A stretch of 64,000 nt of DNA from Planctomycetota bacterium (lineage in GTDB: Bacteria; Planctomycetota; UBA8742; UBA2392), in contig JACKIE010000011.1 of assembly GCA_020638635.1 (NCBI GenBank), forward strand, positions 914-64,913, in the 5' to 3' direction. The notes beneath the pieces were generated by a model. It saw only the letters and a program-made list of their open reading frames with translations. It searched no databases and was not told the DNA's origin. The position numbers and the translations under genes were made by a program. Of the stretch, positions 15,761 through 54,864 are shown one piece after another. Numbering within the stretch: the first letter of the stretch is position 1; the number at the start of each line of letters is the position of its first letter.

Positions 15761-15851
15761 AACCGCAAATTACCAATAACCAGTTACCAATGACCAATGG
15801 GGTTTCCCCGGCATTGGTAATTGGTTATTGGTAATTGTTCATTCGCTGTTC
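15761..15851. repeat. AT-rich palindromic element, copy A (TTACCAATAACCA family)
   Basis: The left arm is AACCGCAAATTACCAATAACCAGTTACCAATGACCAATGG and the loop is GGTTTCCCCGG. The right arm, CATTGGTAATTGGTTATTGGTAATTG...CGCTGTTC, is its inverted complement. The element starts 9 nt after the actF stop. Confidence 0.85.
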
Positions 15852-21798: not shown

Positions 21799-23130
21799 AT
21801 GACGCAGCTCAAGCGCACGGTGGGTGTGGGTGGCGCAGTGCTGCTGGGCCTGGGCTCCATCGTCGGCACCGGCATCTTTGTCAGCCTGCCGATCGCCTAC
21901 TCGACGGCGGGCGCTTTCGCCCTGCCGGCCGTGTTGGTCGCTGCCGGAGTCGCGATGTGCAACGGGCTCAGCTCTGCGCAGCTGGCGGCGGCGCACCCGG
22001 TCAGCGGCGGCACCTACGAATACGCCTATCGGCTGATGTCCGGGCGCGCGGGCTTTACCGCCGGCTGGATGTTCCTGGTCGCGAAATCCGCCAGCGCCGC
22101 CACGGCGGCGCTCGGCTTTTCCACCTATCTGCTTCAGCCGTTTCACGAGGCCGACAACCGCTGGGCGGTGACGGGGCTTTCCCTGGGCGTGGTGGCGGCG
22201 CTAACGCTGCTGGTGTTGTCGGGTCTGCGCCGCAGCAACTGGCTGAACGCGCTGCTGGTGTGCGTCACGGTCGGCTCGCTGCTGTTGTTCGTGGGCGCCG
22301 GCCTGCCCCGGACTCTCAGCGCTCCGGGCGAGCCCTTCTTCAACGGCGGCGTCCCCGCCTTGCTGGAGTCCTGCGCCCTGCTGTTCGTCGCGTTTACGGG
22401 CTACGGGCGCATCGCCACCATGGGCGAAGAGATCACGAATCCTGGGCGCAACATACCTCGTGCCGTGATCGTCACGCTGGCGGTATCAGCCCTGTTGTAC
22501 CTGTCGGTGGCCTTCGTGCTGGTTGCCTACCCGACGAAACCGTCGCAGGCCATTGAATGGTTGACGCTACAGCAGCAGGCCGAGGCGTTTGGTGTGGGCT
22601 GGATTCCGCGTGCAATCGGTGTCGGCGCCATGGTGGCCATGCTGGGCGTGCTGCTGAACCTGGTGCTGGGGCTGAGCCGCGTGTGGCTGGCCATGGGGCG
22701 GCGCGGCGACATGCCGCGCGTGCTGGCGCGCGTGAACGCCAGCGGCACCACGCCGGTGCCGGCCGTGATCCTGACCGGCCTGGTGATCGCCGGGCTGGTG
22801 CTGATCGGCGACGTGAAAAAGACCTGGAGCTTCAGCGCGTTCACGGTGCTGGTGTACTACGCCTTCACCAACGCCAGCGCGCTGCTGCTGCCGCGCGAGC
22901 AGCGCCGCTACCCGGCCTGGATCGGCGTGGCGGGCCTGGCAAGCTGCCTGTTCCTGGCCTTCTGGGTCGAGTGGCAGGTCTGGGCCATCGGCCTCGGGCT
23001 GATTGCGTTTGGACTGGTCTGGCACGCCGCTGCAGGATCACTCTTTCGTCGTGTGTCCGGAGAACAGCGAATTACCAATAACCAGTTACCAATTTCCAAT
23101 GAGGCTGCTGACTCGCAACACAAGGGTTAG
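21799..23130 (+). CDS. APC-family amino acid permease
   Basis: 443 aa with about 12 TM segments. The N-terminal APC signature is GAVLLGLGSIVGTGIFVSLP. The last ~23 codons are encoded by a half-copy of the palindromic repeat. Confidence 0.85.
   Translation: MTQLKRTVGVGGAVLLGLGSIVGTGIFVSLPIAYSTAGAFALPAVLVAAGVAMCNGLSSAQLAAAHPVSGGTYEYAYRLMSGRAGFTAGWMFLVAKSASAATAALGFSTYLLQPFHEADNRWAVTGLSLGVVAALTLLVLSGLRRSNWLNALLVCVTVGSLLLFVGAGLPRTLSAPGEPFFNGGVPALLESCALLFVAFTGYGRIATMGEEITNPGRNIPRAVIVTLAVSALLYLSVAFVLVAYPTKPSQAIEWLTLQQQAEAFGVGWIPRAIGVGAMVAMLGVLLNLVLGLSRVWLAMGRRGDMPRVLARVNASGTTPVPAVILTGLVIAGLVLIGDVKKTWSFSAFTVLVYYAFTNASALLLPREQRRYPAWIGVAGLASCLFLAFWVEWQVWAIGLGLIAFGLVWHAAAGSLFRRVSGEQRITNNQLPISNEAADSQHKG
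23062..23103. repeat. AT-rich palindromic element, copy B (left arm only)
   Basis: GAACAGCGAATTACCAATAACCAGTTACCAATTTCCAATGAGG matches the left arm of copies A, C and D. No right arm follows. Confidence 0.8.
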
Positions 23131-24714: not shown

Positions 24715-24944
24715 GCGGACGAAGCAGAGTCTTGTGTACGGCTGTCTGACGACGTGTCGGTGGAGTCGAGAACGCCGGGCGGGCAGGCATGACTTGCCAA
24801 TCCTCGCTTGCATGACTGTGTAACTCGGCGTATTGCAATGAAATGCCCTTGAGAGAAATAAATAGCATAAATCTTGACTGCGTATTGTGAACCAAAGAAG
24901 CTTTCAGGCTGTGCAGGTTGTCCCCTTCCCCGAGGAGAACCGAA

Positions 24945-27203
24945 ATGGCCCGTTCACCACTCAGCGTTGTACTTGCGCTGATCCCTCCGGCCGCCGTGTT
25001 GTGCCTGCCTTTGGCGCTGTTGACGGTCCACGCCGATGACCCGCCGGGGCCCGGCCCGGTTGATCAACCTGCTCGACCGCGGAACTCCGCGGACGACAAG
25101 GCCGCAAGAAAGGCGCGCGGCCGCCCCGAACGACAAGCGCTGGCGACCGTTGCCGTGAAACTGTCGGATGGCGTTGATGCCACCGCCGTTGCGCGGCGAC
25201 ACGGCGCGACGGTTGATTTTCAACTTGCGTCCCTGCCCGGCTGGTACCAGCTCCGATTTGCTGACGCTCCAGCCGCTGAAAGTGCTCTGCCGGCGCTGGT
25301 TGCCGACGCGGACGTCATCCAGGCGCGGCAGCAGTACCAGAGCCGCGCCGCGCGCAAGACCAACGACACCTACTACAGCCAGCAATGGCACCTGGAGAAT
25401 ACCGGCCAGTCGGGCGGCACGGCGGGCAAGGACGTCAAACCCGCCGGAGCCTGGGCTGCAAACTACACCGGCAGCGGCGTGATGGTTTCCATCGTGGATG
25501 ACGGTGTGGAAACCGCGCACCCGGACCTCGCCGCCGGTTACAACCCAGCCTATGCCTACGACTACGTGGACAACGACGCCAACCCGAATCCCGTGCTTGC
25601 CAACGACACGCACGGGACGGCCGTTGGCGGCCTGGCAATCGCGCGCGGGGAAAACAGCCTGGGCGTGGCGGGAGTGGCATACAACGCGAACTGGACCGCC
25701 GTCCGGCTGCTGGGAACCGGAATTTCGGACTCGACCGAAGCGTCGGCGCTCGGCCATGCCCTGGCCAACGTGGACGTCTACAATAACAGCTGGGGCGCGC
25801 CGGACACCGGAGACTACGAGGAAATCGGCCCCCTCGCCAAGGCCGCCATTGAGAACGGAGTAGCAACGGGGCGCGGCGGAAAAGGCGCGATTTACGTCTG
25901 GGCGGGCGGCAACGGCGACGCGTGGGGCGATGATTCGAACCTCGACGGCTACGCCGCAATGCCCGAAACCATCGCGACGGCCGCCATCAACGACAACTTC
26001 AACGGCAGCTCTTACTCGGAGGCCGGCGCGAACATATTGGTGACGGCGCCGGGCGGCGAGTCCGACATGTTTACCTCCGACATCACCGGCGCCGGCGGCT
26101 ACAACGACGGCACGGTGTTTGCCGACTCGAACTACACCAACGACTTCGACGGCACTTCGGCGGCTACCCCGGTGGTTACGGGCGTGGTGGCGCTGATGCT
26201 GCAGGCCAACCCGAACCTCACATGGCGCGACGTGCAGCACATCCTGGTGAACACGTCCGACCACTCCACCATCTCCGGCACCAGCTCGACCAACGCAGCC
26301 GGTTTCCAGGTGTCCGACCGCTGGGGCTTCGGCGTGGTCCGCGCTGACCGCGCGGCATCTCTTGCGTCAGCGTGGTCGAACGTGCCCGCGCGCCAGACAC
26401 TGAACTCGCCCGTGGACAGCCCCAACACGCCGATCCCCGACGCCAGCGCGCTCGGGGTCATCCGCAGCATTTCGGTGCCCAGCAACCTGTACATCGAGCA
26501 CGTGGTGGTGGAATTCACCACCAATCACACCTACTGGGGCGATCTGCGCATCACGCTGACCGCGCCCAGCTCGACTGTCAGCAGGCTGGCCGTGGCTTCC
26601 GGCGGCTGGGGGCCTGCAAGTTCAAGCACGTGGCGATTCCTCAGCACACGCCACTGGGGCGAACAGGCCCAGGGCAACTGGACGCTGCGCGTCGTGGACG
26701 AGGTTGCCGTGGACATCGGCGATCTCCAGTCCTGGCGCATCTACTTCTACGGCACCGCAACGCCGCCGAATCAGCCGGCCAGCATCGCAAACACCAGCCT
26801 CAGCGACGGCACCACCGGCCTGGGATACAACCACGCGTTCCAATACAACAGCACATCAACCCAGGTGGTCTGGAGCCTCTCCGGCTCCGTCCCCCCGGGG
26901 CTCTCCATCAACACCGCCAACGGTGTATTGAGCGGGACTCCCTCCCTGGCGGGAACTTTCAACTTCACCGTGACCGGCACCGGATCCGTGCCGCCATCCA
27001 CCGCAAGCGCTAACGTCACCCTCAACGTCATCCAGGGCACTGCCCCTCCACCCGGCGGCGGATTGAACGGTGGCGGCGGAGGAGGCGGCGGAGGGTGCAG
27101 CGCGGGCAACCCAGGCTTACCCACGGGTGCGGCACTCGCCTTGTTCGGCGCCGTGGCATGGCTGCGGCGCCGGCGCCGGCGGCCGGAAGGAAATTCAGCC
27201 TGA
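24945..27203 (+). CDS. Secreted subtilisin/kexin-like S8 protease with P-domain, Ig-like domain and a Cys-TM-Arg C-terminal sorting tail
   Basis: ATG at 24945 with GAGGAG upstream, and a signal peptide. The catalytic D/H/S contexts are VSIVDDGVETAHPDL, HGTAVGG and GTSAATPVVTG. The P-domain-like segment is HTYWGDLRITLTAPSSTVSRL. The tail is GGGGGGGCSAGNPGLPTGAALALFGAVAWLRRRRRRP. Confidence 0.88.
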   Translation: MARSPLSVVLALIPPAAVLCLPLALLTVHADDPPGPGPVDQPARPRNSADDKAARKARGRPERQALATVAVKLSDGVDATAVARRHGATVDFQLASLPGWYQLRFADAPAAESALPALVADADVIQARQQYQSRAARKTNDTYYSQQWHLENTGQSGGTAGKDVKPAGAWAANYTGSGVMVSIVDDGVETAHPDLAAGYNPAYAYDYVDNDANPNPVLANDTHGTAVGGLAIARGENSLGVAGVAYNANWTAVRLLGTGISDSTEASALGHALANVDVYNNSWGAPDTGDYEEIGPLAKAAIENGVATGRGGKGAIYVWAGGNGDAWGDDSNLDGYAAMPETIATAAINDNFNGSSYSEAGANILVTAPGGESDMFTSDITGAGGYNDGTVFADSNYTNDFDGTSAATPVVTGVVALMLQANPNLTWRDVQHILVNTSDHSTISGTSSTNAAGFQVSDRWGFGVVRADRAASLASAWSNVPARQTLNSPVDSPNTPIPDASALGVIRSISVPSNLYIEHVVVEFTTNHTYWGDLRITLTAPSSTVSRLAVASGGWGPASSSTWRFLSTRHWGEQAQGNWTLRVVDEVAVDIGDLQSWRIYFYGTATPPNQPASIANTSLSDGTTGLGYNHAFQYNSTSTQVVWSLSGSVPPGLSINTANGVLSGTPSLAGTFNFTVTGTGSVPPSTASANVTLNVIQGTAPPPGGGLNGGGGGGGGGCSAGNPGLPTGAALALFGAVAWLRRRRRRPEGNSA

Positions 27204-27765: not shown

Positions 27766-27795
27766 GGGGCGCTTGCCGGTTGTGGTTTGCGGGTT

Positions 27796-27898
27796 GAACA
27801 GCAAATTACCAATAACCAATTTTCAATTACCAATGGCCGCTCTCTGCGGACCCCGCTGAATTGGTCATTGGTAGTTGGTTATTGGTAGTTCGCTGTTC
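27796..27898. repeat. AT-rich palindromic element, copy C (full length, 103 bp)
   Basis: GAACAGCAAATTACCAATAACCAATTTTCAATTACCAATGG - centre CCGCTCTCTGCGGACCCCGCTGAATTGGT - CATTGGTAGTTGGTTATTGGTAGTTCGCTGTTC. Confidence 0.9.
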
Positions 27899-27943
27899 CG
27901 AACCACCCGGCACACCGCCACCATCGAAAAACCGCTCCCTCCT

Positions 27944-27970
27944 TGTCACAACCCGCCCGCCCTGTTCGTC
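27944..27970 (+). promoter_or_regulatory. ECF41-type sigma-factor promoter (TGTCACA-N16-CGTC)
   Basis: TGTCACA (27944-27950), a 16-nt spacer, then CGTC (27967-27970). The ATG of the CMD-family gene lies 21 nt downstream, and that gene is followed by an ECF41-type sigma factor. Confidence 0.7.
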
Positions 27971-27991
27971 CTCTCTTTGAAGGAGACGACT

Positions 27992-28555
27992 ATGGCTCGC
28001 ATCGAAGGTTCCAACCCGCGTGGTGTTTACCAGCGCGCCGTGTTCTGGTTCATGAAGCGTGTGCTCGGGCGCGTGCCTGAGCCCGTCAAAATCCTGGCGT
28101 TCAGCCCGACCGTGTTCAAAGGCCGCACCGGCATGGAGCGCGCCCTGATGACGCTGTCCGTGCCGCCCGGCCTGGTCACGCTGGCGCAGATCCGCGTGGC
28201 CCAGCGCATCGGCTGCCCCTTCTGAGTGGACATCAACTCTGCCGTGGGCAGCAAGTCGGGTCTCACACACGCGCGCATCGCGGCCCTGGCCGACTGGCGC
28301 AACAGCGACGTCTTCAACAGCATCGAGCGCGACGTGCTCGCCCTGGCCGACGCCATCACCGACACCCCCGCCAACGTGGACGAGGGCCTGTTCGGCCGCC
28401 TGCTGATCGCGCTGGGGCCGCGGCAGCTGGTCGAGCTGACCAACGCCATCGGCTGGGAAAACCTGCGCGCCCGCACCAACCGCGTGTTTGACGCGCAATC
28501 GGAAAGCTACTACGACGGCGCCCTGTGTATGCTGCCGGCCAGAAAGGTCGCGTGA
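27992..28555 (+). CDS. Carboxymuconolactone decarboxylase/AhpD-like family protein with in-frame UGA (28223-28225), a candidate selenoprotein (CxxU)
   Basis: ATG at 27992 with AGGAG at 27981. Two same-frame track ORFs (to 28225, and from 28226) are joined only by TGA, within RIGCPF[TGA]VDIN at the family's CxxC position. A hairpin lies at 28236-28256. The stop overlaps the sigma start (TGATG). Confidence 0.6.
28236..28256 (+). promoter_or_regulatory. SECIS-like hairpin downstream of UGA 28223
   Basis: ACTCTGCC-GTG-GGCAG(CA)AGT: 8 bp with a 2-nt bulge, starting 10 nt after the UGA. Its core is shared with 48840-48858. Confidence 0.5.
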
Positions 28556-29406
28556 TGCAGGAAGAAAGCTTCTTCGACCAGCAGCGTTCGTACCTGTTCG
28601 CGATCGCTTACCGCATGCTGGGCAGCGCCGCCGACGCCGACGACATGGTGCAGGAGGCCTGGCTGCGCTGGCAGCGCGACGACCGCAGCGGCGTCGCCAA
28701 CCCGCGCGGCTACCTGGCCGGCGTGGTCACGCGCCTGTGCCTCGACCGCCTGCGCGAGCTGAAGCGCCGGCGCGAAGAGTACGTGGGCCCCTGGTTGCCT
28801 GAGCCGCTGCTGACCCAGGCCCCGGCCGACGGCGGCGAGCTGGCGGAAAGCCTGTCACTGGCGTTCCTCACCATGCTGGAGCGCCTGACGCCCGTGGAGC
28901 GCGCGGTGTTCCTGCTGCGCCAGGTGTTCGGCTACGAGTACGCCGAGATCGCGGCCATCGTCGGTAAAACCGAGGCCAACTGCCGCCAGCAGTTCAGCCG
29001 CGCGCAGAAAGCCATCGCCGAGGCGCGCCCGCGTTTCGAGACTTCGCGCGAGGCCCAGCAGCGCATGCTGCAGGGCTTCCTGGAGGCAGTGGGCAGCGGC
29101 GACCTTTCGCGCATCGAGAGCATCCTGCGTGAGGACGTCGAGTTCATCTCCGATGGCGGCGGCAAGGTGATCGCCGCGCGCCGCGTGCTCCACGGCCGCA
29201 GCGAGGTTGCCAAGTTCCTGCACAGCCTGGCGCAGCGCAGCCCGGAGGGGGTCAGCTTCGAGTTCGCGCCGGTGAACGGGCAGCTTGGCCTGCTGCTGAA
29301 GCTGCAGGGCAAGCTGGAGACGGTGTTCGTGATCGAGTCGGTGGGCGGGACCGCGCAGACCATCCGCGCCATCCGCAACCCGGACAAGCTTGCAAGGCTG
29401 GCCTGA
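28555..29406 (+). CDS. ECF sigma factor, group ECF41 (SigJ-like) with fused C-terminal SnoaL/NTF2-like domain
   Basis: 283 aa with region 2 (YLFAIAYRMLGSAADADDMVQEAWLRW), the linker YVGPWLPEPL, region 4 (ERAVFLLRQVFGYEYAEIAAIVGKTEANCRQ), and a C-terminal extension of about 100 aa. Confidence 0.88.
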   Translation: MQEESFFDQQRSYLFAIAYRMLGSAADADDMVQEAWLRWQRDDRSGVANPRGYLAGVVTRLCLDRLRELKRRREEYVGPWLPEPLLTQAPADGGELAESLSLAFLTMLERLTPVERAVFLLRQVFGYEYAEIAAIVGKTEANCRQQFSRAQKAIAEARPRFETSREAQQRMLQGFLEAVGSGDLSRIESILREDVEFISDGGGKVIAARRVLHGRSEVAKFLHSLAQRSPEGVSFEFAPVNGQLGLLLKLQGKLETVFVIESVGGTAQTIRAIRNPDKLARLA

Positions 29407-29415
29407 CGCGGTGTC

Positions 29416-29518
29416 GAACAGCAAGTTACCAATAACCAATTTTCAGTTACCAATGGCTCTTCACTGCGGACTCCGCTGAATTGAACATTGGTAACTGGTT
29501 ATTAGTAATTCGCTGTTC
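29416..29518. repeat. AT-rich palindromic element, copy D (full length, 103 bp)
   Basis: GAACAGCAAGTTACCAATAACCAATTTTCAGTTACCAATGG - centre CTCTTCACTGCGGACTCCGCTGAATTGAA - CATTGGTAACTGGTTATTAGTAATTCGCTGTTC. It begins 10 nt after the sigma-factor stop. Confidence 0.9.
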
Positions 29519-29581
29519 CGTAGCACCGCACAGGCTGGAAGACTCACGACAAGTCCCGCAACCGCAAGCTATCATCCTTCC

Positions 29582-48200: not shown

Positions 48201-48998
48201 ATGGAAAAAGCCATGAACAACGTATGCACTCTGACCCCGGATCGCGACTACCTGAAGAACATCGTGCGCGAGACATACACGGCCGTCGCGGACGACCCGG
48301 CCACGCGGTTCCACTTCCATGTCGGCCTGGAGTACGCGGTGCGGTTGCTGGGCTATGACCGCGCGGAACTGGAGTCGCTGCCGCAGATCGCCACCTCGCG
48401 TTTCGCCGGGCTTGGCAACCCGCTGGCGATCGGTCCTCTCCACCCGGGTGAAACCGTGGTGGACCTGGGCAGTGGCGCGGGCATGGACCTGCTTCTGGCC
48501 GCGCGGCGCGTCGGCCGGCTCGGACGTGTCATCGGTGTAGACCCGACGCCCGCCATGCGGAGCACCGCCTGGCAGGCCGCGTGCGAAGCCGGTCTGGCGG
48601 AGCAGGTCTGGATGCTGGAGGGCGAGGTGGAGTCGATTCCGCTGACGGACGGTGTGGCCGACGTGGTAGTCAGCAACGGCGTGCTGAACCTGGGCGTGGA
48701 TAAAGCCCGCGTCTTCCGCGAGATCGCCCGCGTGCTGAAACCGGGCGGGCGAGCCTACCTGGCCGACGCCATCATCGACCGCCCCTTCGGCCCCGCCACG
48801 CTGAGCGACCCAGCCCTGTGGGCTTCCTGAGTGGCGGGCGCTCTGCCGGTGGCAGAGCTGCACAGCCTGATGGAACAGGCCGGCCTGAAGGACGCGCGCA
48901 TCACGGCCGAGTTCAAGAGCTTCCAGGGTACCACGTCCGAACTGCAGGTGGCCCCGTCCATGAAGCTGCGAGCGGCCAACTTCACCGGACGAAAGTAG
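48201..48998 (+). CDS. ArsM/UbiE-like class I methyltransferase with in-frame UGA (48828-48830), a candidate selenoprotein
   Basis: SAM motif VVDLGSGAGMDL. The ORF stops at TGA within LWAS[TGA]VAGAL, where relatives have a conserved Cys. The frame stays open for 55 more codons to TAG 48996-48998. A hairpin lies at 48840-48858. Confidence 0.6.
48840..48858 (+). promoter_or_regulatory. SECIS-like hairpin downstream of UGA 48828
   Basis: GCTCTGCC-GGT-GGCAGAGC: a perfect 8-bp stem starting 10 nt after the UGA. It has the same CTCTGCC-GNN-GGCAG core as 28237-28251. Confidence 0.5.
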
Positions 48999-51993: not shown

Positions 51994-54864
51994 TCAGGGC
52001 TCAGAAAGCACAGCAGCCGCATCAAGTTCCAGGGTATCCATGCCAGTCTGAACGTTAATCGTGAGTGATCGGACTTTTCCATTGCTGTCCCTTCCGGCGA
52101 GCTCGTAGATTCCAGCGCCGTACAGGGTCAAACCATTGCTGTTTGATTTCGACAGACTAATCCAGTCACGCTCCATCATGTTCTGGGGCGTCAACGCCAG
52201 CCAACCGCTGACACCGTCGGTGTTGATCAGGGAAATTGGCGGCATGACTTCAAGCGTTAGTGTGTTGGATGAACCTTGTCGCGGTTCCAGCATCGCCGCC
52301 AGTCTTCTACCACTCGCATCCGCTGTCGCGACAACCCAAACACGCTCCGCGGTGCGCGGCCACATGACTTCAACTTCGCGGCCGAGTTCAAAAGGCTTGC
52401 CGTATCCTCTCATCTTGCCTTCTTCAACCCAAAGGACTTTCAGCAGCCGCATGGAGATCGAAGACTCGCTCGTGTCCACCGTCAAGGTTGCCGTAGCCCG
52501 ATCATGCGGCGGTGGCGGTATGACGAGATCGGCCCGCCACATGTCACCAATACGTGTGACGTATCCCGCGTTGTCATAAAGTCCGAGCTCATCATCGACT
52601 CGTACAGCGACATACGGATACTCCTCGTGCATGCGCGCCGTATAGCCGCCGGCTAGGGCCTGTGCGTGCTTGACCATCTTGTAGTGAATCCCACTGCCCT
52701 TGATGGTTCGAGCATCCATGGGTTGCGGCAATGGTTTATCAAGACAAAGCAAGGCAGGTGTCGGCGAGGACGGAGCAGGCCCGATCCGACCCATTACGAA
52801 CACGTAGCCGGGCTCTTCGTCGATGGCATTTAACACATAAGTGAGGGTTTGATCTGCGTTTGTCAGCCGGAATAGCCCGGCTGGGTGCGCGAAGCCATCC
52901 ATCGACGGAGAGATTAGTTCGATACGAACAGAACCGCGAGGAAGCCTGTCTACCGCGACTTCTCCGTCTTCATCAGTCACTGCATAGCGAGTGGTGCCGG
53001 CTTGTACCCTGTCAGCCTCAGACAATGAACGTGGTTCTTCCAGTCCGATCTTGAAGCGCGCACCGGCCAACGGCACGAGTTCGCCGCCGTCCGCCAATCG
53101 CAGCGCAGCTTTCAAGCGGATGGAAACGCCTTCCCGGTCCGTTTGTATCGTGACATCCACAGTATCCTGGGAAATGGCTTCAACAATATCGCGATCCGGA
53201 CCTCTGACAATCATGGCCTTGGTACCAGGGCGAACGGCAACATCGACGGACTCACCCACTCGACAAGCTTGCGGCGCGGGCCAGCCGGAAATCCAGCCAA
53301 CGTCCCAAGCCGAAACGAAGTACTGTGTATCATCGTGGCTGCCCGCCAGGTGAACTCGTACCGTACGGGTTGCTTGAAGCATCACGTCACCCAGAACGCG
53401 GGTGCCAGCAGGATAAGTGACCTCCGCTGATGCGGCACCATAAGTCGCGACGAGAGAAAAGTCCCAGCGGGAAATCGTAACCAACTCAAAAACGCCGTCG
53501 GCTTGCGAAACGGCGGTGTGAACTGGCATGACAGAGTTGTCCAGCGTCACGAGTGCACCGGCAACCGGCGCGCCTGTGAAGTCCACAACCGTACCTGCGA
53601 TGGTCGCTGCCGTGTGAACGTCGCATTCGAACTCATCTTCCGCAACTCTCCGAAACGTGGACTCGAACGCTTGACCCACCACCACTCCCGCTGCATCCAG
53701 GAGCCGAAGCTGGAGCGTCCTCGGAAATGGGGCGAAATAGGAAGGAAGTTCAATGGTGTCCGCTGACATGAAACGTCCAACGGCCCGGAAAGTCCCTCGA
53801 GATAGTCCGACTTGAATACTTTGCGCAGGATGAATGGGTGACTCAGTCCAGTTCAGATGCAACTGCACAGTCCCTGAGTCTATGACGATCAGGATACGCG
53901 TTGTCGTCCCTCCATTTCCAAGCACCGCGGTCCATAGCGCTCCCGGCAAATCGGGGCTGGAGAGTTCGACATCAGAACGGGGTGTGAGGCCGACAAACTT
54001 TGCGCGGCCCGATTCCACCGGTTGACAGTATCTGGAAGCAGCCTGCAACTCAGGGCGCAGCGCCTGGGGCGCCAATTCAAGTGTGGCCACATTCAAACTG
54101 AGGTCGCCCTCAAGGATGACTTCCAACTGGGCGCCGTCCCTCACGAGCACGCGTACCGCGGCGACGCCGGGCGGGACTTCTGCTGTTCCACACTTACCGG
54201 ACTCATCCGTCGCAAAGACGGTGCGATTTCGATTCGAGACGGGAAACTGAAACGTTCCATCGGTCGATGTCGCCGTCTCGAACAATCCGCCGGAGACCGG
54301 GCTGCAATCAGAGAAGTGTATATGCGATCGTATCGAGACATGCACCTCCCCCAAGCCGTTTCCAGCCTCATCGACGACCACGCCCGCGCCGAGCGCATCA
54401 GGTTCCAGAAGTACACGCACTACGTCAATGCTCGCCGACGTCGATGAAACATTGCGTGACATATATCCGGAAGCCACGATGCGAACTCCCGACGACAACA
54501 CCTGACGCGCCACAGGCGCTTTTCCTTGAGCATCCGTCTGGGACAGCGGCAGTCCCGATGAAAGAATCTGCGCGCCTAAGATCGGCCGACTCGTCAGCTC
54601 ATCCACCACCATCACCATCACGTGTTCGATCGGGGGTTTCCGTTGCGACGAAGCAGCTTTGTGCGGCAGGGAACGATCCACCGTGTGTGAAGTGGCAGGC
54701 GTGTTTTCCTTGGGGTCTGATTGCAGGTCTCGTTGACGCCCTCCTTGAGGCTCATGGACCGTGGCGCAACCGTGCACATGAATGCCCAGCAGTGAAAGCG
54801 CCGCGAGCCCCAACAGGAGGCCCAGCACGATCACCGTCGAACGGTTTAGACTGAATCGATCCAT
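51994..54864 (-). CDS. Large anchored or secreted protein with repeated carboxypeptidase-regulatory-like (prealbumin-fold) domains
   Basis: ATG at 54864 (MDRFSLNRSTVIVLGLLLGLAALSLLGI). There are several segments of the type GTVVDFTGAPVAGALVTLDN and VVVDEAGNGLGEVHVSI. No catalytic motif was recognised. Confidence 0.65.
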   Translation of the reverse strand: MDRFSLNRSTVIVLGLLLGLAALSLLGIHVHGCATVHEPQGGRQRDLQSDPKENTPATSHTVDRSLPHKAASSQRKPPIEHVMVMVVDELTSRPILGAQILSSGLPLSQTDAQGKAPVARQVLSSGVRIVASGYMSRNVSSTSASIDVVRVLLEPDALGAGVVVDEAGNGLGEVHVSIRSHIHFSDCSPVSGGLFETATSTDGTFQFPVSNRNRTVFATDESGKCGTAEVPPGVAAVRVLVRDGAQLEVILEGDLSLNVATLELAPQALRPELQAASRYCQPVESGRAKFVGLTPRSDVELSSPDLPGALWTAVLGNGGTTTRILIVIDSGTVQLHLNWTESPIHPAQSIQVGLSRGTFRAVGRFMSADTIELPSYFAPFPRTLQLRLLDAAGVVVGQAFESTFRRVAEDEFECDVHTAATIAGTVVDFTGAPVAGALVTLDNSVMPVHTAVSQADGVFELVTISRWDFSLVATYGAASAEVTYPAGTRVLGDVMLQATRTVRVHLAGSHDDTQYFVSAWDVGWISGWPAPQACRVGESVDVAVRPGTKAMIVRGPDRDIVEAISQDTVDVTIQTDREGVSIRLKAALRLADGGELVPLAGARFKIGLEEPRSLSEADRVQAGTTRYAVTDEDGEVAVDRLPRGSVRIELISPSMDGFAHPAGLFRLTNADQTLTYVLNAIDEEPGYVFVMGRIGPAPSSPTPALLCLDKPLPQPMDARTIKGSGIHYKMVKHAQALAGGYTARMHEEYPYVAVRVDDELGLYDNAGYVTRIGDMWRADLVIPPPPHDRATATLTVDTSESSISMRLLKVLWVEEGKMRGYGKPFELGREVEVMWPRTAERVWVVATADASGRRLAAMLEPRQGSSNTLTLEVMPPISLINTDGVSGWLALTPQNMMERDWISLSKSNSNGLTLYGAGIYELAGRDSNGKVRSLTINVQTGMDTLELDAAAVLSEP

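Follow-up and report, generated by a model that had tools for sequence, protein, structure and literature searches.

The question raised by this locus is whether two adjacent open reading frames (ORFs) separated by a single TGA represent two genes, one decayed gene, or one intact gene in which the TGA is read as selenocysteine (Sec). The locus lies in a stretch of 64,000 nucleotides of contig JACKIE010000011.1 from a Planctomycetota bacterium (GenBank assembly GCA_020638635.1), hereafter the window. The analyses indicated that positions 27992-28555 very probably form one intact gene, encoding a genuine selenoprotein of the carboxymuconolactone decarboxylase (CMD)/AhpD fold with the motif C75-P-F-U78, in which U78 (Sec) would stand at the second position of a CxxC redox motif (CxxU). 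As judged from sequence comparisons, this locus of a wastewater planctomycete almost certainly encodes one intact redox protein with Sec at its active site.

Reading frame, fold and conservation of the UGA codon

The two ORFs, 27875-28225 and 28226-28555, occupy a common frame on the forward strand, as do the other features of the gene and its operon given below, and the TGA at 28223-28225 is the sole break between them. Reading through from the ATG at 27992 to the TGA at 28553-28555 gives a protein of 187 residues (187 codons, 27992-28555 including the stop). The break falls within ...AQRIGCPF[TGA]VDINSAVG..., where the UGA is codon 78 and would be read as Sec78. The first-pass annotation, made from the letters of the window, had described this read-through frame, its residue context and an AGGAG upstream of the start. 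The sequence reads as first described, and re-derivation of the coordinates placed a Shine-Dalgarno sequence, GAAGGAG, at 27979-27985, 6 nt ahead of ATG 27992, in a context, GAAGGAGACGA(A/C)(C/T)ATG, that is kept in orthologues. Contigs from four independent public metagenome runs, taken from activated sludge and wastewater in four studies, showed zero differences over the TGA site, and the TGA is therefore not an assembly artefact.

Profile searches with the read-through protein bore out its assignment to the CMD family, with a score of 33.9 bits against Pfam PF02627 (gathering score 23) over residues 39-120. The top NCBIfam match was NF053654, 'GroundWater_YciW: YciW-related (seleno)protein', a curated family with selenoprotein members, which was matched over its full length (residues 1-171 against profile positions 1-174 of 179; 97.8 bits, E 6e-28). 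The score is far under the cutoff of 310, and on this profile comparison the 187-aa protein is classed as a relative of NF053654 and not as a member.

An AlphaFold2 model computed from a 37-sequence alignment (pLDDT 92.6, pTM 0.88) showed a single all-helical domain that is continuous across the UGA position; C75 and U78 lie where helix 76-88 begins. Foldseek matched this model to structures of the AhpD/CMD fold with TM-scores of 0.66-0.81, reaching about 0.8 for Bmp8, mlr4105 and the AhpD of Streptococcus pneumoniae. The solved relatives, namely the debrominase Bmp8 (PDB 6ohi/6ohj), Pseudomonas aeruginosa PA0269/AhpD (2ijc, 2o4d, 7xw1) and Mesorhizobium loti mlr4105 (3c1l), share the fold but differ in having only 17-29% identity to the CMD selenoprotein and Cys in place of Sec. 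The codon of Cys75 (28214-28216), which opens the CxxU motif, is invariant in the 37-sequence alignment and lies over the first Cys of the CxxC of PA0269 (2ijc).

Sequence alignment to PA0269 placed GCPF-U-VDIN over GCAY-C-VNMH; therefore the UGA replaces the second Cys of CxxC, and Asn82 replaces the conserved His. Instead of the canonical CxxCxxxH site the protein has U78-V-D-I-N82, with Asn aligned to the His that PA0269 keeps four residues past its second Cys, and the Cys relatives of the same subfamily (CPFCVDINS) likewise have Asn at this position. The Sec78 position is that of the second CxxC cysteine, which we take to correspond to the nucleophilic Cys133 of Mycobacterium tuberculosis AhpD. 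In that enzyme His137, four residues after the second Cys, is the proton relay. Because the relay His is Asn both here and in the nearest Cys relatives, the protein is not called an alkylhydroperoxidase.

The occurrence of Cys in the homologues at the UGA column, as would be expected for Sec, had been proposed at the outset and was borne out by three sets of sequences. Cys occupies this column in 15 of 17 full-length database homologues (32-44% identity; GC[EP]FCxDIGS), in 51 further loci of named genomes, mostly Pseudomonadota (30-39% identity; CPFCVDINS), and in the PA0269 structure (GCAYCVNMH). Altogether, about 67 homologues of 30-45% identity have Cys there. Public databases list the present gene as two fragments, and every record examined for its clade was likewise split or truncated, in agreement with the earlier expectation that a standard gene caller would split or truncate this gene: each of the 27 database proteins with more than 60% identity corresponds to an ORF call of 103-122 aa that contains only the part after the UGA, and most of them begin at the codon immediately 3' of it.

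Conservation of the TGA was assessed in 15 distinct loci, comprising the window, two Planctomycetota metagenome-assembled genomes, two metagenome contigs and ten contigs from an exact-protein look-up; a metagenome scan contributed two TGA-type loci, and L069, a duplicate of L068, was kept out of the count. TGA was found at the identical codon in 15/15 of these orthologous loci (63-94% identity), all of which have a conserved N-terminal part of 77-78 residues (MARIEGS...RIGCPF) ahead of it. The gene tables of two more contigs list the same split, into 78 + 107/109 aa. Among ten ungapped orthologues, the ratio of nonsynonymous to synonymous substitution rates (dN/dS) was 0.18 before the TGA and 0.21 after it, at a median dS of about 0.9, and the orthologues have no frameshifts or extra stops 3' of the TGA. 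In a maximum-likelihood tree, the TGA forms made up a single clade with 100/100 support, nested among the Cys forms, which indicates that they share a single origin.

The nearest relative outside the Sec clade, and its sister in the tree, is P0024, a protein of 186 aa from a Joint Genome Institute (JGI) metagenome with 42% identity. In it, Leu (GCPFLIDIGS) replaces the Cys or Sec of the other proteins, and its TTA codon, one base off TGA, may be a mutated or miscalled Sec codon.

The hairpin downstream of the UGA and a second UGA site in the window

A hairpin had been noted in the first-pass annotation at 28236-28256, 3' of the UGA, and it was recovered here with a core stem of 28239-28243/28247-28251 and an apical loop GUG at 28244-28246. 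A lower stem runs out to 28226 and 28266, and the whole (28226-28266) is regarded as a candidate bacterial selenocysteine insertion sequence (SECIS)-like element. When positions are numbered from the U of UGA as 1, the core stem has 5 bp, 17-21/25-29 (CUGCC/GGCAG), and encloses the loop G22-U23-G24, in which G stands first and which lies 18 nt past the UGA. Several orthologues add the pairs 15:31 and 16:30 and thus form a hairpin of 17 nt with its onset 11 nt after the UGA. The published limits for bacterial SECIS (bSECIS) elements are a loop of 3-9 nt that has G within its first two positions, a stem no shorter than 4 bp, a spacing of 16-37 nt and a minimum free energy of at most -7.5 kcal/mol (PMC13188914). 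The element of the window falls within all of them, with its GUG loop, 5-bp stem, 18 nt spacing and, for the extended fold of 28226-28266, -13.5 kcal/mol; this folding check, and the covariation described next, upheld the proposal of a hairpin after the UGA.

In the 15-sequence alignment, 79% of the cells paired, compared to at most 52% when the partner was slid by 1-3 columns, and the observed pairing values were reached in 1-3 of 500 column shuffles. Ten sequences had U:A at pair 18:28, three had C:G and one had G:C, and pair 16:30 was U:A, G:C or U:G in seven. The onset of the loop fell at nt 21-25 in 15/15 TGA loci, while an onset at nt 20-25 was found in only 3/54 Cys homologues. This difference in position, together with the covarying pair 18:28, indicates that the hairpin is not a chance fold. 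The orthologue L067 encodes a different peptide here (VDINAFLGQEK) and has a shifted hairpin with a G-rich loop, UGGGUCA.

The element resembles the Escherichia coli fdhF SECIS and the bSECISearch model in being a hairpin within the coding sequence 3' of the UGA, with a 3-nt loop that starts with G-U and lies 18 nt away, and a stem of 4 bp or more, but it differs from the fdhF SECIS in its much shorter stem, the lack of an obvious bulged U and the absence of sequence similarity. In work of Liu et al. in 1998, the minimal E. coli element was reportedly the 17-nt upper stem-loop located 11 nt after the UGA, and this form is matched by the 15:31 form of two orthologues (L073 and L075).

A search of the 64 kb revealed the 15-mer CTCTGCCGNNGGCAG twice, at 28237 and at 48841, where 0.33 matches were expected at the one-mismatch setting. 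The second copy lies in a gene on the forward strand at 48201-48998 that is predicted to encode an ArsM-like S-adenosylmethionine (SAM) methyltransferase, and which is a second selenoprotein candidate. It has an in-frame TGA at 48828-48830 and, at 48841-48857, a hairpin of 7 bp (CUCUGCC-GGU-GGCAGAG) that is nearly the same as the one after the CMD UGA and has its onset 13 nt after the U of the TGA. In solved ArsM structures, the residue aligned to this TGA is the conserved Cys of ...LLGECLAGAL.... The predicted protein matched NF041537, NF047649 and NF041536, all under their cutoffs; they comprise the model 'arsenite methyltransferase/AhpD domain selenoprotein' and two further models for selenoproteins of ArsM type. 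When a covariance model was derived solely from the CMD orthologues, its top non-self match was 48841-48857, although only at E = 0.34. The next match, at 52345, was rejected as a chance one, with no TGA upstream.

The ArsM-like hairpin lies in another codon phase and encodes another peptide than the CMD hairpin, and coding constraint therefore cannot explain the RNA sequence that the two sites share. Without a Sec-decoding system it would be difficult to account for two genes that have UGA at a catalytic Cys, followed at a similar distance by the same hairpin. The CMD gene and the ArsM-like gene, 20 kb apart, together indicate that the organism decodes selenocysteine.

Matches to the region around the UGA were also seen in other contigs. 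A wastewater-metagenome contig of 159 nt from run X9, compared with 28213-28252, has in common only a 40-nt core (the Cys codon, CCC TTC TGA and the hairpin) with 4 differences and has unrelated flanks, and in run X3 short contigs confined to the 40-nt core lift the summed depth there. The core with its SECIS may recur in other genes or organisms.

Alternative readings of the UGA

Several results weigh against reading the UGA as selenocysteine. When folded alone, the region 28223-28285 was no better than its shuffles (z = -0.04), and an Rfam scan at gathering thresholds matched no SECIS family, the only match being tRNA-Arg. The hairpin is small, with a core stem of 5 bp in the window, and its covariation comes mainly from one pair among related sequences. 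The generic bSECIS criteria are loose, since 24/54 Cys controls satisfy them at some position within the 48 nt past the codon; because they fail to discriminate, position-specific conservation and covariation were used here. Regarding the Sec machinery, no selA, selB or selD was found among the 20 large ORFs of the window scanned with NCBIfam, in which the only match to a SelB profile was LepA (64 bits, cutoff 242), and neither the window nor any of the 15 TGA-type loci gave a tRNA-Sec with ARAGORN. A complete Sec machinery is present in some Planctomycetes (PMC4807772). A genome-wide reassignment of TGA was excluded, since lepA, which matches its full-length profile end to end, ends at TGA, as does the CMD gene itself, whose terminal TGA is conserved and overlaps the next start.

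The explanations that compete with Sec insertion differ in how much of this evidence they can accommodate. In one of them the UGA is read through with another residue, either Cys, brought by a SelB-dependent tRNA(Sec)-like tRNA, or Trp or Cys from near-cognate decoding stimulated by the hairpin, the product being a CxxC or CxxW protein. The conserved UGA, the hairpin and the constraint on both sides show recoding without identifying the inserted residue, and to this extent they fit such a reading equally. However, the UGA coincides exactly with the redox Cys of CxxC, the position characteristic of Sec, AhpD-like CxxU selenoproteins are an established family, and the same hairpin follows the second UGA of the window at a catalytic Cys, in a family with curated selenoprotein models. 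Insertion of Cys would also give a clade at dS of about 0.9 no reason to retain UGA over UGC. Read-through with another residue is thus considered improbable.

A conserved split gene, which had been listed at the outset as two genes with a GTG restart, was judged still less probable. Here translation would stop at the UGA and restart at the next codon, giving chains of 77 and 109 aa that assemble non-covalently into a CMD fold without the second Cys. GTG does follow the TGA directly in 13/15 loci, gene callers consistently give two ORFs, and the constraint on both halves would be required by a split gene as well. Yet the codon after the TGA is GTC in L054 and GTA in L066, neither of which can start translation, and the GTG restart was rejected on these grounds. 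Val is equally conserved at this position in the Cys forms (CPFCVDINS), so that the GTG is a plain Val codon, and it has no Shine-Dalgarno sequence before it, in contrast to the GAAGGAG of the true start. According to the structural model, a split protein would lose the catalytic residue and have its active-site helix broken in two. Splitting would also leave unexplained both the covarying hairpin and the same hairpin after the second UGA.

The third explanation, a pseudogene or a sequencing or assembly error, would involve a recent nonsense mutation or a miscalled Cys codon, and it draws on the fact that a single base change separates TGA from TGC or TGT and that standard annotation gives a truncated gene. 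It is effectively refuted, with hardly any probability left to it. The TGA is shared by 15 distinct loci down to 63% identity, and the low dN/dS of about 0.2 downstream of it, with an open frame throughout, does not fit decay; conservation of the TGA in a monophyletic clade and purifying selection on both halves thus exclude a pseudogene. Against an error stand the identical sequence in the four independent metagenome runs and a contig from an RNA-labelled run that spans the site with the TGA intact. Sec insertion at codon 78 remains by far the most probable reading, and from it the chemistry of the protein may be proposed.

In the proposed mechanism, the short hairpin within the coding sequence (core 28239-28251) would recruit SelB with Sec-tRNA(Sec) and direct Sec to codon 78. 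The product would be a thiol/selenol oxidoreductase whose redox centre, C75-x-x-U78, lies at the N-terminal end of helix 76-88. By analogy with AhpD, Sec78 would act as the nucleophile on an oxidised substrate, in place of the attacking cysteine, after which Cys75 would resolve it to a selenenylsulfide that is then recycled by a reductant.

Known AhpD-like selenoproteins and the ECF41 operon

Selenoproteins of this general kind have been described before. AhpD-like (COG2128) and CMD-domain (PF02627) CxxU proteins were reported in the selenoproteomes of the Sargasso Sea (27 + 4 sequences; PMC1088965) and of the Global Ocean Sampling (GOS) survey (299 + 70 sequences; PMC2398784), they are listed again in PMC13188914, and the kind is also represented in NCBIfam. 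The first-pass annotation had pointed to reports of AhpD-like proteins with Sec in place of Cys in metagenomic selenoproteome surveys, and this proved correct for both surveys. The proteins of the Sargasso Sea and GOS resemble the present one in the AhpD/CMD fold, Sec as the second residue of CxxC, the large number of Cys homologues and a short hairpin just past the UGA that has G in its loop. As drawn from the published descriptions, the present proteins differ in forming a Sec-only clade with GCPFUVDINS, in Asn for the relay His and in the ECF41 operon described below.

The clade has been met so far solely in Planctomycetota-type contigs, and several of its fragments carry the JGI label 'alkylhydroperoxidase family enzyme'. 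Taken together, the sequence comparisons indicate that it is a new Sec-only clade of an already known AhpD-like selenoprotein kind, systematically mis-annotated as fragments. Correct reading of the gene would add, for planctomycete-type bacteria of activated sludge and other environments, an AhpD-like clade made up only of Sec forms, and leaves general knowledge of selenoproteins unchanged.

Genomic context analyses revealed that the CMD gene is the first of two closely linked genes. An ECF41-type promoter lies at 27944-27970, ending 21 nt before the ATG, with a -35 element TGTCACA (27944-27950), a 16-nt spacer and a -10 element CGTC (27967-27970). The gene that follows, at 28555-29406, is predicted to encode an ECF41/SigJ-type sigma factor, and its ATG overlaps the selenoprotein stop (TGATG). 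The sigma factor (283 aa) scored 342.9 bits against TIGR02957 (cutoff 323.25) and 317.8 bits against NF007214 SigJ (threshold 271), and it has the domains Sigma70_r2 and Sigma70_r4_2 and a weak C-terminal match to SnoaL_2 at residues 173-237. No anti-sigma gene was noted next to it, although no search aimed at one was made. According to Wecke et al. (2012; PMC3426412), the target promoter of ECF41 sigma factors has the consensus TGTCACA-n16(+/-1)-CGTC, to which the motif before the CMD gene corresponds exactly, and the predominant layout is >COE>>ECF>, with a promoter only before the COE gene, where COE stands for carboxymuconolactone decarboxylase, oxidoreductase and epimerase; Planctomycetes are unmentioned in that study.

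In 12 TGA-type loci the exact promoter motif is present as a single copy at an unchanged offset, and no fetched Cys-type locus contains it. In the 11 TGA-type loci with listed gene calls, the sigma gene was immediately downstream in 10, and its start overlaps or abuts the selenoprotein stop in 9. The wider order of genes is also conserved, consisting of a CCA-adding enzyme, a DinB-like gene, the CMD(Sec) gene, the sigma gene, a small gene and an M55 peptidase. In its >COE>>ECF> order, in the TGTCACA-n16-CGTC found only before the COE gene and in the SigJ/TIGR02957 sigma factor with a C-terminal extension, the locus is like the known ECF41/COE modules, and it differs from them in that the COE partner here is a selenoprotein. 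From this organization, the CMD selenoprotein gene is assigned to a canonical ECF41 module, in which it is the first cistron and the target of COE type. Its placement in such a module is a modestly new element, and the literature search found no paper linking ECF41 to selenocysteine.

The orthologue L067, from a JGI contig and 63% identical, keeps the Sec-UGA and lacks both the ECF41 promoter motif and an adjoining sigma gene. Its peptide after the UGA, VDINAFLGQEKG, is also found in the group formed by P0022 and P0025-P0028.

Transcription of the operon would start from TGTCACA-n16-CGTC, and TGATG would couple the translation of the selenoprotein and sigma genes. The operon is probably autoregulated, the sigma factor being made from its own ECF41 promoter. 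Because the UGA lies in the first cistron and the sigma start overlaps the stop in most orthologous loci, synthesis of the sigma factor may depend on Sec insertion 330 nt upstream; that the ECF41 circuit is selenium-gated in this manner is nevertheless regarded as unlikely. If it were, ribosomes would stop at UGA78 when selenium is scarce, the coupled translation of the sigma factor would drop, and the operon would shut itself down.

ECF41 sigma factors are widespread, and the role of the single COE target and the signal are obscure. Sec at the active site of an ECF41 target would support a redox-catalytic role for the COE partner, and the CMD selenoprotein would offer a tractable experimental handle on ECF41, through Sec/Cys swaps and selenium dependence. 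RNA-labelled runs yielded contigs of a strain about 96% identical over the operon, among them the one spanning the UGA; the deepest of these runs bear the label 'metatranscriptomic WGS', DNA may be present in them, and the contigs are thus weak evidence that the operon is expressed.

The two genes are flanked by copies of a low-GC palindromic element, to which no strand is assigned. The first copy, of 115 nt with 39-nt arms and a TTACCAATAACCAATTTTCA core, is located at 27793-27907, directly before the ECF41 promoter, and the second, 86% identical, at 29413-29527, directly after the sigma gene. Related pieces were found at 15770-15834 and 23072-23091, and contigs of both RNA and DNA runs pile up or break at 29413-29457. 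These elements may represent terminators or repeats of the REP/REPIN kind.

On its forward strand the window has, at 24918-27203 and thus between the CCA-adding enzyme and the DinB-like gene, a gene for a predicted exported subtilisin-like protease of 761 aa, as read from its sequence, with DDGV, HGT and GTSAATP as Asp/His/Ser motifs, a segment resembling a P-domain and a Gly-rich anchor at the C-terminus. In most relatives this position has at most one short ORF; L067 has an amino-acid permease gene, but at another place. Additional genes lie next to the selenoprotein gene itself in two orthologous loci (L073, 3366-3743, and L075, 2058-2507), with a PDDEXK_3 (PD-(D/E)XK) gene between the selenoprotein and sigma genes in one and a Y1_Tnp transposase just upstream in the other. 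Small mobile genes appear to target the CMD/sigma neighbourhood.

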